DNA of 64,000 bases from Escherichia coli (GTDB lineage Bacteria; Pseudomonadota; Gammaproteobacteria; Enterobacterales; Enterobacteriaceae), in NCBI RefSeq assembly GCF_003334815.1, contig NZ_QOWO01000008.1, one strand, 5' to 3'. Positions within the stretch are counted from its first letter, which is position 1, and the number at the start of each line of letters is the position of its first letter. Positions 45,779 through 48,557 of this stretch are shown one piece after another. Under the pieces are notes generated by a model. The model was not told the DNA's origin, ran no database searches, and saw only the letters and a list, made by a program, of their open reading frames with translations. Made by a program: the position numbers and the translations under genes.

Positions 45779-46699
45779 ATGCGTTTCCGCCAGTTGTTAC
45801 CGCTTTTTGGCGCGCTGTTTGCGTTGTATATCATTTGGGGCTCAACCTATTTTGTCATTCGGATTGGCGTGGAAAGCTGGCCTCCGTTAATGATGGCGGG
45901 CGTTCGATTCCTGGCAGCCGGTATTTTATTGCTGGCATTTTTGCTACTGCGCGGACACAAACTCCCCCCGCTACGTCCGCTGCTCAATGCCGCGCTGATT
46001 GGCCTGTTATTGTTGGCTGTCGGTAATGGCATGGTGACGGTTGCCGAGCATCAAAATGTTCCTTCCGGCATCGCCGCCGTAGTGGTTGCAACCGTGCCCC
46101 TCTTTACCCTGTGCTTCAGCGGCCTGTTTGGCATTAAAACGCGCAAACTGGAATGGGTGGGTATCGCCATTGGGCTTGCCGGAATCATCATGCTCAATAG
46201 CGGTGGAAATTTAAGCGGCAATCCGTGGGGCGCGATTCTGATTTTAATCGGCTCGATTAGCTGGGCGTTTGGCTCAGTTTATGGCTCGCGCATTACCTTA
46301 CCTGTAGGGATGATGGCGGGTGCGATTGAGATGCTGGCGGCAGGCGTGGTGTTAATGATCGCGTCGATGATTGCAGGTGAAAAACTGACGGCGCTCCCTT
46401 CCCTTTCAGGCTTCCTTGCGGTCGGCTATCTGGCGCTGTTTGGTTCGATTATCGCCATCAACGCTTATATGTATTTAATCCGTAATGTCAGTCCGGCTCT
46501 CGCCACCAGCTACGCTTACGTTAACCCGGTGGTCGCGGTCTTGCTGGGTACGGGACTGGGCGGAGAGACGTTGTCGAAGATTGAATGGCTGGCGCTCGGC
46601 GTAATTGTCTTCGCGGTGGTACTGGTCACGTTGGGAAAATATCTCTTCCCGGCAAAACCTGTAGTTGCGCCAGTTATTCAGGACGCATCAAGCGAGTAA
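45779..46699 (+). CDS. yedA: EamA/DMT-family transporter YedA
   Basis: 306-aa ORF with 10 predicted TM segments. Confidence 0.93.
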   Translation: MRFRQLLPLFGALFALYIIWGSTYFVIRIGVESWPPLMMAGVRFLAAGILLLAFLLLRGHKLPPLRPLLNAALIGLLLLAVGNGMVTVAEHQNVPSGIAAVVVATVPLFTLCFSGLFGIKTRKLEWVGIAIGLAGIIMLNSGGNLSGNPWGAILILIGSISWAFGSVYGSRITLPVGMMAGAIEMLAAGVVLMIASMIAGEKLTALPSLSGFLAVGYLALFGSIIAINAYMYLIRNVSPALATSYAYVNPVVAVLLGTGLGGETLSKIEWLALGVIVFAVVLVTLGKYLFPAKPVVAPVIQDASSE

Positions 46700-47158
46700 A
46701 TGAATCCCCTGCGTGTCGATCTGCGCGCTGGCACCTTCGCCGCAGATCCACTCTTCCAGACGCTCGCTAAGCGCTTCATCCGTCAGCTTCTCGCGCCCAC
46801 GTAACGCGCACTCCCAGACAATCAATACGCGCCAGCCGAGTTCCTGCAAGCGACTGATATCGCGGCGATCGCGCTCAACATTTTTACCTATCTTCTCCAG
46901 CCAGAACTCGGTTCGAGTCGCAGGCACTTTAAACAGATAGCAGTGATGATGATGCCAGAAGCAGCCGTGGGTAAATATCACGCAACAATATTCATCAACG
47001 ACAAAATCCGGGCGTCCGGGCAGACTGGCGTCCTGAACGCGAAACGCCAGGCCCTGCCCGGTTAACAGACTGGCGAGGCGCTTCTCAATCGCCGTATCAC
47101 GCGTGGCAATCGCGCGCATATTTTTGCTGCGAGTGGCCTTATCGTGAACGTCGGCCAT
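46688..47158 (-). CDS. vsr: Very-short-patch repair endonuclease
   Basis: ORF track 46688..47320; start set to [17 protein letters not shown] (156 aa), inside the 3' end of dcm in another frame. Confidence 0.93.
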
Positions 47159-48557
47159 GTTGTGCCTCTTGCTGACGCAACGCCACCGCCTGTTTGATTT
47201 TTGGCTCAAGCAGTTTTGCCACCGCGGCAAAGACCGGCACGACCACCGAGTTACCGAACTGGCGATAGGCCTGAGTGTCCGAAACCGGAATGCGGAATTT
47301 CGCTTCTCCCGGCGCTTCAAAACCCATTAAGCGCGCGCATTCCCGAGGCGTTAACCGACGTGGACGATGTTGCTGATTCAGCGGATCGTCAAAGTCTTTC
47401 TCACCCGTGGCCATATCCCAGCCGCGATCGATTAAAATTTCCGCGCCATCTTTGTAATAACGCGCAGACAGCGTACGGGTGACGCTTTGCGGATTGTTCG
47501 GATAAACCATTCCATAACCGAAGCCGTTACCGCGCGCCTGATGTTTTTTCGCATAACGATAGAGGTACTTCCACAGCACCGGCGTCAGGATATATTTCGC
47601 CTCGACCATCGGGTCCAACAGCTGCGCCAGCGTCACTCGCTGTGCAGGGAAACATTCGCTGATATCACGCAGAGTAAAATCGGCTTTCAGATTAAGATCG
47701 CGACGAAAACCCACCAGCACGATGCGTTCACGGTGCTGCGGCAGAAAATGTTTACCATCGATGATTTTCGGATCGTCCGGCCCGTTATCTTCTGCATCAG
47801 CCACGTCATAGCCCAGTTCGTCCAGCGTCTGCATGATGATGCGGAACGTTTTACCCTGGTCGTGGCTTTTCAGGTTTTTGACGTTTTCGAGCACAAACAT
47901 CGCCGGACGACGCGCGTCGATAATGCGCACCACATCAAAGAACAGCGTGCCCTGAGTATCGCAGGCAAAACCGTGCGCCCGCCCGAGCGAGTTCTTTTTC
48001 GATACGCCAGCCAGCGAAAATGGCTGACAAGGGAAACCGGCCAGTAAAACATCGTGTTCAGGAATGTGTTGACGAATATGTTCCGCCGCCGCCTCATCAC
48101 TCACGCCTTCTTTATGGCTGAGGGTGATGTCGCGGATATCTTCATTAAAATGATGCGTCGCCGGGTCGCAATAATGGTTGGCTTTATAAGTGCGTACCGC
48201 ATGTTTGTTCCATTCGCTGGTAAACACGCACTGTCCGCCAATCGATTCAAAACCGCGACGGATGCCGCCAATTCCGGCAAATAGATCGATAAAGCGAAAC
48301 GCATAATGCGGATGATGTGCCGGTGGTTTGGGTAACAACGTTTGCAGATGGGCGAACTCTTTCTCACTTAAACGGTGCCATGCCGAGTCATTCGCCAGCG
48401 CACGTTTTAAAATTGCCGCGCTCCAGTGATTCTCACCTACACCATTAAGCTGAGCCACCAGCGTTTTAACATCATAAATTTGCAGCAGTTTCTCCAGCAT
48501 TGCCTGTGCGGCATTCCCGGTGCTGTATGAATCGGTTACTGATATATTTTCCTGCAT
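47139..48557 (-). CDS. dcm: DNA cytosine-5 methyltransferase Dcm
   Basis: 472-aa ORF with C5-MTase motifs FAGIGG and catalytic PCQPFS. Confidence 0.97.

Follow-up and report, generated by a model that had tools for sequence, protein, structure and literature searches.

The window, by which we mean the whole 64,000-nucleotide stretch of Escherichia coli DNA that was analysed, almost certainly carries a chromosomal dcm–vsr operon of the standard form, in which the two genes would be co-transcribed, Vsr would be a protein of its own and its translation would be coupled to that of dcm. The identity of the two genes, the geometry of their overlap and the intact catalytic residues are observed in the window, and the same geometry is kept across three genera. 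Since the early 1990s it has been understood that a methylase which makes mutational hot spots is co-expressed with the nuclease which repairs them. An earlier note on this DNA had offered the locus mainly as a control for canonical overlaps, and this use is sound, as the geometry is identical to that of K-12 and the arrangement has been published. The locus is a textbook case of a same-strand, out-of-frame overlap, conserved across the Enterobacteriaceae, and it serves as a calibration point and a yardstick for the other overlaps in the window. The overlap itself is already known: published work describes the methylase and its cognate T:G endonuclease as encoded in one operon by partly overlapping genes (PMC4444293; PMC4924334; same operon, PMC12907096), as well as the loss of Vsr activity when dcm translation stops early. 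The observation made in the earlier note is thus confirmed and its interpretation supported.

Geometry of the dcm–vsr locus

The ORF listing and translations place the vsr stop and the dcm start exactly at the two ends of the interval 46688–48557, as had been claimed. Both genes (dcm, 1419 nt; vsr, 471 nt) lie on the minus strand, a detail absent from the earlier note. The features of the locus are as follows.

47139–48557, minus strand: dcm, DNA-cytosine C5 methyltransferase (M.EcoKDcm, CCWGG), ATG at 48557, 472 amino acids (ORF listing and translation)
46688–47158, minus strand: vsr, very-short-patch repair T:G mismatch endonuclease, ATG at 47158, 156 amino acids (MADVHDK...)
47139–47158, minus strand: dcm/vsr overlap, 20 nt, ATGGCCGACGTTCACGATAA, read as M-A-D-V-H-D-(K) in vsr and as (H)-G-R-R-S-R-stop in dcm
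47139–47141, minus strand: dcm TAA stop codon, lying across vsr codons 6–7 (GAT AAG; junction sequence)
47165–47170, minus strand: AAGAGG, a Shine–Dalgarno-like motif inside dcm codons, 6 nt 5' of the vsr ATG (junction sequence; putative function)
46688–46699, vsr on the minus and yedA on the plus strand: convergent overlap of the vsr and yedA 3' ends, 12 nt (ORF listing)

The 20 shared nucleotides comprise 17 nt of dcm sense codons and the dcm stop codon, and seven dcm codons are touched. On the minus strand the junction reads ...CAG CAA GAG GCA CAA CAT GGC CGA CGT TCA CGA TAA in the dcm frame and ATG GCC GAC GTT CAC GAT AAG in the vsr frame. Since (48557 − 47158) mod 3 = 1, the vsr frame is +1 relative to dcm. 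The description of a vsr start 20 bp inside dcm in a different frame is therefore exact, with the dcm TAA counted among the shared nucleotides. The term 'embedded', which had been applied to vsr, is too strong, as only the first 20 of the 471 vsr nucleotides are overlapped. With vsr on the same strand as dcm, directly 3' of it and starting 20 nt inside it in the +1 frame, the locus has the organization of the enterobacterial overlapping dcm–vsr operon, and its chromosomal context is likewise the expected one (yedJ-dcm-vsr with a convergent yedA).

The convergent neighbour YedA matches the family model NF008432 with 511 bits. Because the 3' ends of vsr and yedA overlap convergently, each transcript must enter the coding sequence of the other gene; the overlap is 12 nt in K-12 as well and 26 nt in Klebsiella. 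On the strand opposite to vsr, in the 5' part of that gene and roughly 400 nt beyond the yedA stop, there is a terminator-like hairpin followed by a T-run (CGCGTGGCAATCGCGCG CATATTTTTG; 47100–47126, plus strand). Known only as a consensus match, it could serve as a yedA terminator located inside vsr.

The 66-nt spacer between yedJ and dcm contains a perfect 8-bp GC-rich hairpin (CGGCCATC-TCA-GATGGCCG; 48567–48585, minus strand), which lacks a T-run and ends 9 nt 5' of the dcm ATG; the fold of the surrounding 101 nt has a z-score of −2.65. E. coli conserves the hairpin, Salmonella has a degraded form of it and Klebsiella lacks it. Upstream of it, TTATGTTA is common to E. coli and Salmonella and has one mismatch (TTATGGTA) in Klebsiella. 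Possible roles of the hairpin are those of an element for processing or stability, or of a component of a weak promoter or ribosome-binding region of dcm. No obvious Shine–Dalgarno sequence was found for dcm (anti-Shine–Dalgarno pairing of −3.3 kcal/mol).

An antisense ORF of 186 amino acids within dcm (47487–48047, plus strand) was considered as a candidate gene and rejected. Its 12 nucleotide differences from K-12 produce 12 amino-acid differences; as none of these differences is silent and an in-frame stop is present in one E. coli strain, the ORF is taken to be a non-coding frame artefact.

The Dcm and Vsr proteins

The amino-acid sequence of Dcm is 100% identical to that of K-12 b1961, all 19 nucleotide differences between the two genes being synonymous. 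The protein is a member of NF007772 (952 bits, cut-off 710) and also scores well above the cut-off of TIGR00675 (351 bits against 100.7). The Pfam domains DNA_meth_N (PF18284) and DNA_methylase (PF00145, E = 6.8e-77) cover residues 19–75 and 87–448, respectively, and the residues encoded in the overlap lie past the end of the catalytic domain at residue 448. All of the C5-methyltransferase motifs I, IV, VI, VIII, IX and X are present.

Motif I (FxGxG, AdoMet binding): FAGIG at 93
Motif IV (catalytic Cys): PCQ at 176–178
Motif VI: ENV at 224
Motif VIII (QxRxR): QHRER at 274
Motif IX: RECARL at 405
Motif X: GNSV at 435

By its complete identity to K-12 Dcm, the specificity of which is the inner C of CCWGG (PMC4924334; PMC4444293), the enzyme encoded here would be expected to methylate the same cytosine. 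Within the 64-kb window, CTWGG is depleted (observed/expected ratio of 0.54–0.65 under a maximal-order Markov expectation) and no enrichment of CCWGG was found (0.76 under the same expectation); these counts are not evidence of very-short-patch repair, because the sample is too small and general CTAG avoidance confounds them.

Vsr matches TIGR00632 with 179 bits (E = 3e-53, cut-off 97.85), profile positions 1–119 corresponding to residues 1–118 of the protein, and contains the Pfam domain Vsr (PF03852, E = 3.3e-38). The PDB matches are 1CW0, 1VSR and 1ODG (E = 8e-105), and 154 of the 156 residues are identical to the crystallized enzyme chain 1CW0. Asp51, His64 and His69, which we take to be catalytic, and Cys66, His71, Cys73 and Cys117, presumably the zinc ligands (1VSR and 1CW0 structures), are all in place. 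Spurious ORFs are generally abundant in this region, and on that ground alone the +1-frame vsr ORF might be regarded as open by chance rather than as a gene. We discard this reading altogether in view of the two HMM matches, the PDB match and the RefSeq annotation of vsr in thousands of genomes. Given its near-identity to the characterized enzyme, the protein is predicted to nick 5' of the T in a T:G mismatch within CTWGG/CCWGG; recognition and nicking of T:G mismatches by Vsr start very-short-patch repair (PMC2715241; PMC12907096).

A longer vsr of 210 amino acids, beginning at a TTG at 47320, was tried and rejected: there is no in-frame ATG or GTG 5' of 47158, the family profile starts at Met1 and conservation starts at MADVHDK.

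The vsr frame is nevertheless open for 54 more codons 5' of its ATG, up to this TTG, and Vsr activity could in principle come from a Dcm–Vsr fusion produced when ribosomes shift frame by +1 within the overlap. To this reading we assign next to no credence. The TIGR00632 alignment begins at residue 1 of the ATG-initiated protein, the crystallized active enzyme (1CW0) begins at residue 2 of the vsr ORF, and conservation among the three genera sets in sharply at MADVHDK, with diverging sequence upstream; nor does any slippery or frameshift motif stand out. In addition, Dar and Bhagwat in 1993 reportedly detected Vsr on its own, with a mass of about 18 kDa.

Relative to K-12 b1960, vsr has seven nucleotide differences, which result in two amino-acid changes, R58C and T131S. 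Codon 58 (46985–46987) is TGT (Cys) in place of CGC (Arg) in K-12, a two-nucleotide change. The exact 61-nt context of Cys58 occurs in 56 of 4172 matching E. coli genomes, which makes it a rare allele. Salmonella has Asp at this position and Klebsiella has Arg; as the residue differs among genera, the R58C change is probably neutral.

Expression of vsr and its probable coupling to dcm

Deamination of the 5-methylcytosine made by Dcm gives rise to T:G mismatches (PMC2715241; PMC12907096). In the mechanism that we favor, Vsr would nick such a mismatch 5' of its T, after which the C would be restored by DNA polymerase I together with ligase, completing very-short-patch repair. The vsr gene would have no promoter of its own and would share a transcript with dcm, which probably extends over drpB-yedJ-dcm-vsr. 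Vsr would be translated as a separate protein from the ATG located 20 nt short of the dcm end, with the AAGAGG inside dcm as its ribosome-binding site, and its efficient synthesis would need ribosomes that are translating dcm. Such translational coupling would tie the output of the repair enzyme to the output of the methylase that creates the hazard.

The biochemical activities, the co-transcription and the dependence of vsr on dcm translation are taken from the literature and not from the sequence of the window. The primary papers are those of Sohail et al. in 1990 and Dar and Bhagwat in 1993, the latter reportedly finding that Vsr is expressed from the promoter of dcm and depends on translation upstream of it. 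Full-length transcript sequencing has placed yedR(drpB)-yedJ-dcm-vsr on a single transcript (bioRxiv 10.1101/262964). A consensus scan of positions 46000–49400 found no sigma-70-like promoter (0 against 2.8 expected), which, weak as such a negative result is by itself, fits the absence of an internal vsr promoter. Indirect evidence for a role of dcm translation comes from the dcm-6 mutation: in PMC4444293, which cites Dar & Bhagwat 1993, this nonsense mutation at codon 45 of dcm is described as also abolishing vsr activity.

The same data can be accommodated differently. The vsr gene could be translated independently from its own Shine–Dalgarno sequence, the overlap being an accident of a compact genome and the polarity of the dcm nonsense mutation being transcriptional (Rho-dependent). 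The AAGAGG 6 nt before the ATG pairs with the anti-Shine–Dalgarno sequence at −5.8 kcal/mol, and the junction carries no significant RNA structure that would occlude the start: the fold of 141 nt around it is no more stable than those of shuffled sequences (z = −0.54). An occluding structure at the vsr start, or a structural switch, was also considered and set aside for want of sequence support (the same z of −0.54). Furthermore, the engineered, dcm-deleted E. coli CM13 retains just the last 72 nt of dcm (record positions 4452–4523) before an intact vsr, which suggests that this stretch was deemed sufficient for expression. With a junction of ordinary structure and a Shine–Dalgarno sequence that is usable in E. 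coli, coupling and independent initiation cannot be told apart from the sequence alone.

Two points nonetheless make independent initiation unlikely in our judgement. The first is the loss of vsr activity in dcm-6, which Dar and Bhagwat reportedly ascribed to a need for upstream translation. The second is comparative: the anti-Shine–Dalgarno pairing before vsr is −5.8 kcal/mol in E. coli and −5.7 kcal/mol in Salmonella and only −3.3 kcal/mol in Klebsiella, yet the 20-nt overlap is exact in all three genera. A strictly conserved overlap beside a weakly conserved Shine–Dalgarno sequence favors coupling, and we infer that translational coupling operates likewise in this strain.

Vsr is said to be regulated by growth phase (Macintyre et al. 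in 1999). A far more speculative proposal, which we consider very improbable, is that the overlap, strictly kept among genera beside a poorly conserved Shine–Dalgarno sequence, sets the Vsr:Dcm ratio by termination–reinitiation, perhaps underlying this growth-phase change, and that, separately, Cys58 alters the activity or stability of Vsr.

Comparison with K-12, other enterobacteria and a plasmid cassette

In K-12 MG1655 (NC_000913.3), vsr (b1960) occupies 2030448–2030918 and dcm (b1961) occupies 2030899–2032317, with an overlap of 20 nt. Alignment to this locus, the check that the earlier note had proposed for its claim, bears the claim out: every base of the 61-nt junction agrees and the 1870-nt region as a whole differs by 26 substitutions and zero indels (98.6% identity). 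Among 5426 complete E. coli genomes searched with megablast, 5359 contain at least 80% of the 1870-nt region, always annotated as dcm / vsr / yedA; nine more have partial matches only and 58 have no match to the region. One genome, that of the O15:H12 strain 2273-PO3, matches at 100% of nucleotides, and its RefSeq annotation gives dcm / vsr / yedA with the same 20-nt overlap. Megablast finds the 101-nt junction in 5320 E. coli genomes, in every one of them at an identity of 95% or more, and the 20-nt overlap is likewise annotated in two copies that rank among the most divergent of E. coli.

A tblastn search of a plasmid collection with Vsr retrieved syntenic enterobacterial loci that had been filed as plasmids. 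In Salmonella enterica dcm ends 20 nt past the vsr ATG, and Klebsiella pneumoniae retains the yedJ-dcm-vsr-yedA-yedI block with the same 20-nt overlap. The first 15 residues of Vsr are invariant in E. coli, Salmonella and Klebsiella, and in each of these genera vsr codons 6–7 hold the dcm stop. The tail of Dcm varies (HGRRSR, DGGRSR and DGGCSR, respectively), since a synonymous change at a third codon position of vsr falls on a first codon position of dcm. With the Vsr N-terminus and the overlap invariant while the Dcm tail varies, the overlap has been kept and it is the Vsr frame that is constrained.

The surroundings of the operon also follow K-12. An Rfam search of the window at the gathering threshold gave the following matches, which agree with the K-12 map around 1.99–2.05 Mb.

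41467–41553, minus strand: DsrA sRNA
49889–49978, plus strand: RseX sRNA
19846–19887, plus strand: ES036 sRNA, just above threshold
9661–9960, minus strand: cluster of three tRNAs
59706–59792, minus strand: tRNA
60784–60856, plus strand: tRNA

The porin ORF of the yedS locus (50261–51478, plus strand) is intact in the window, with 405 amino acids from the first ATG. It is annotated as OmpC-family in strain 2273-PO3 and is a pseudogene in K-12 and CM13.

The locus resembles that of K-12 MG1655 in strand arrangement, gene lengths, the +1 overlap of 20 nt, the 61-nt junction and the Dcm protein, as well as in its neighbours yodC, yedI, yedA, yedJ, drpB and rseX, and differs from it in Vsr R58C and T131S and in the intact yedS. 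Salmonella and Klebsiella share the position of the overlap, the 15 N-terminal Vsr residues and the dcm stop in vsr codons 6–7. The proteins themselves have diverged: 397 of 472 Dcm residues and 135 of 156 Vsr residues are identical in Salmonella enterica, compared with 362 of 472 and 118 of 156 in Klebsiella pneumoniae. Klebsiella differs further in its Vsr of 164 amino acids, its vsr/yedA overlap of 26 nt and its weaker or absent Shine–Dalgarno sequence. A more distant relative, the cassette on plasmid pACRY04 of Acidiphilium cryptum, likewise has vsr immediately 3' of a C5-methylase gene, overlapping it on the same strand. There the methylase/vsr overlap is 8 nt and not 20, Vsr is only about 43% identical, and the genes belong to a restriction–modification system in which the endonuclease gene overlaps vsr by 41 nt.
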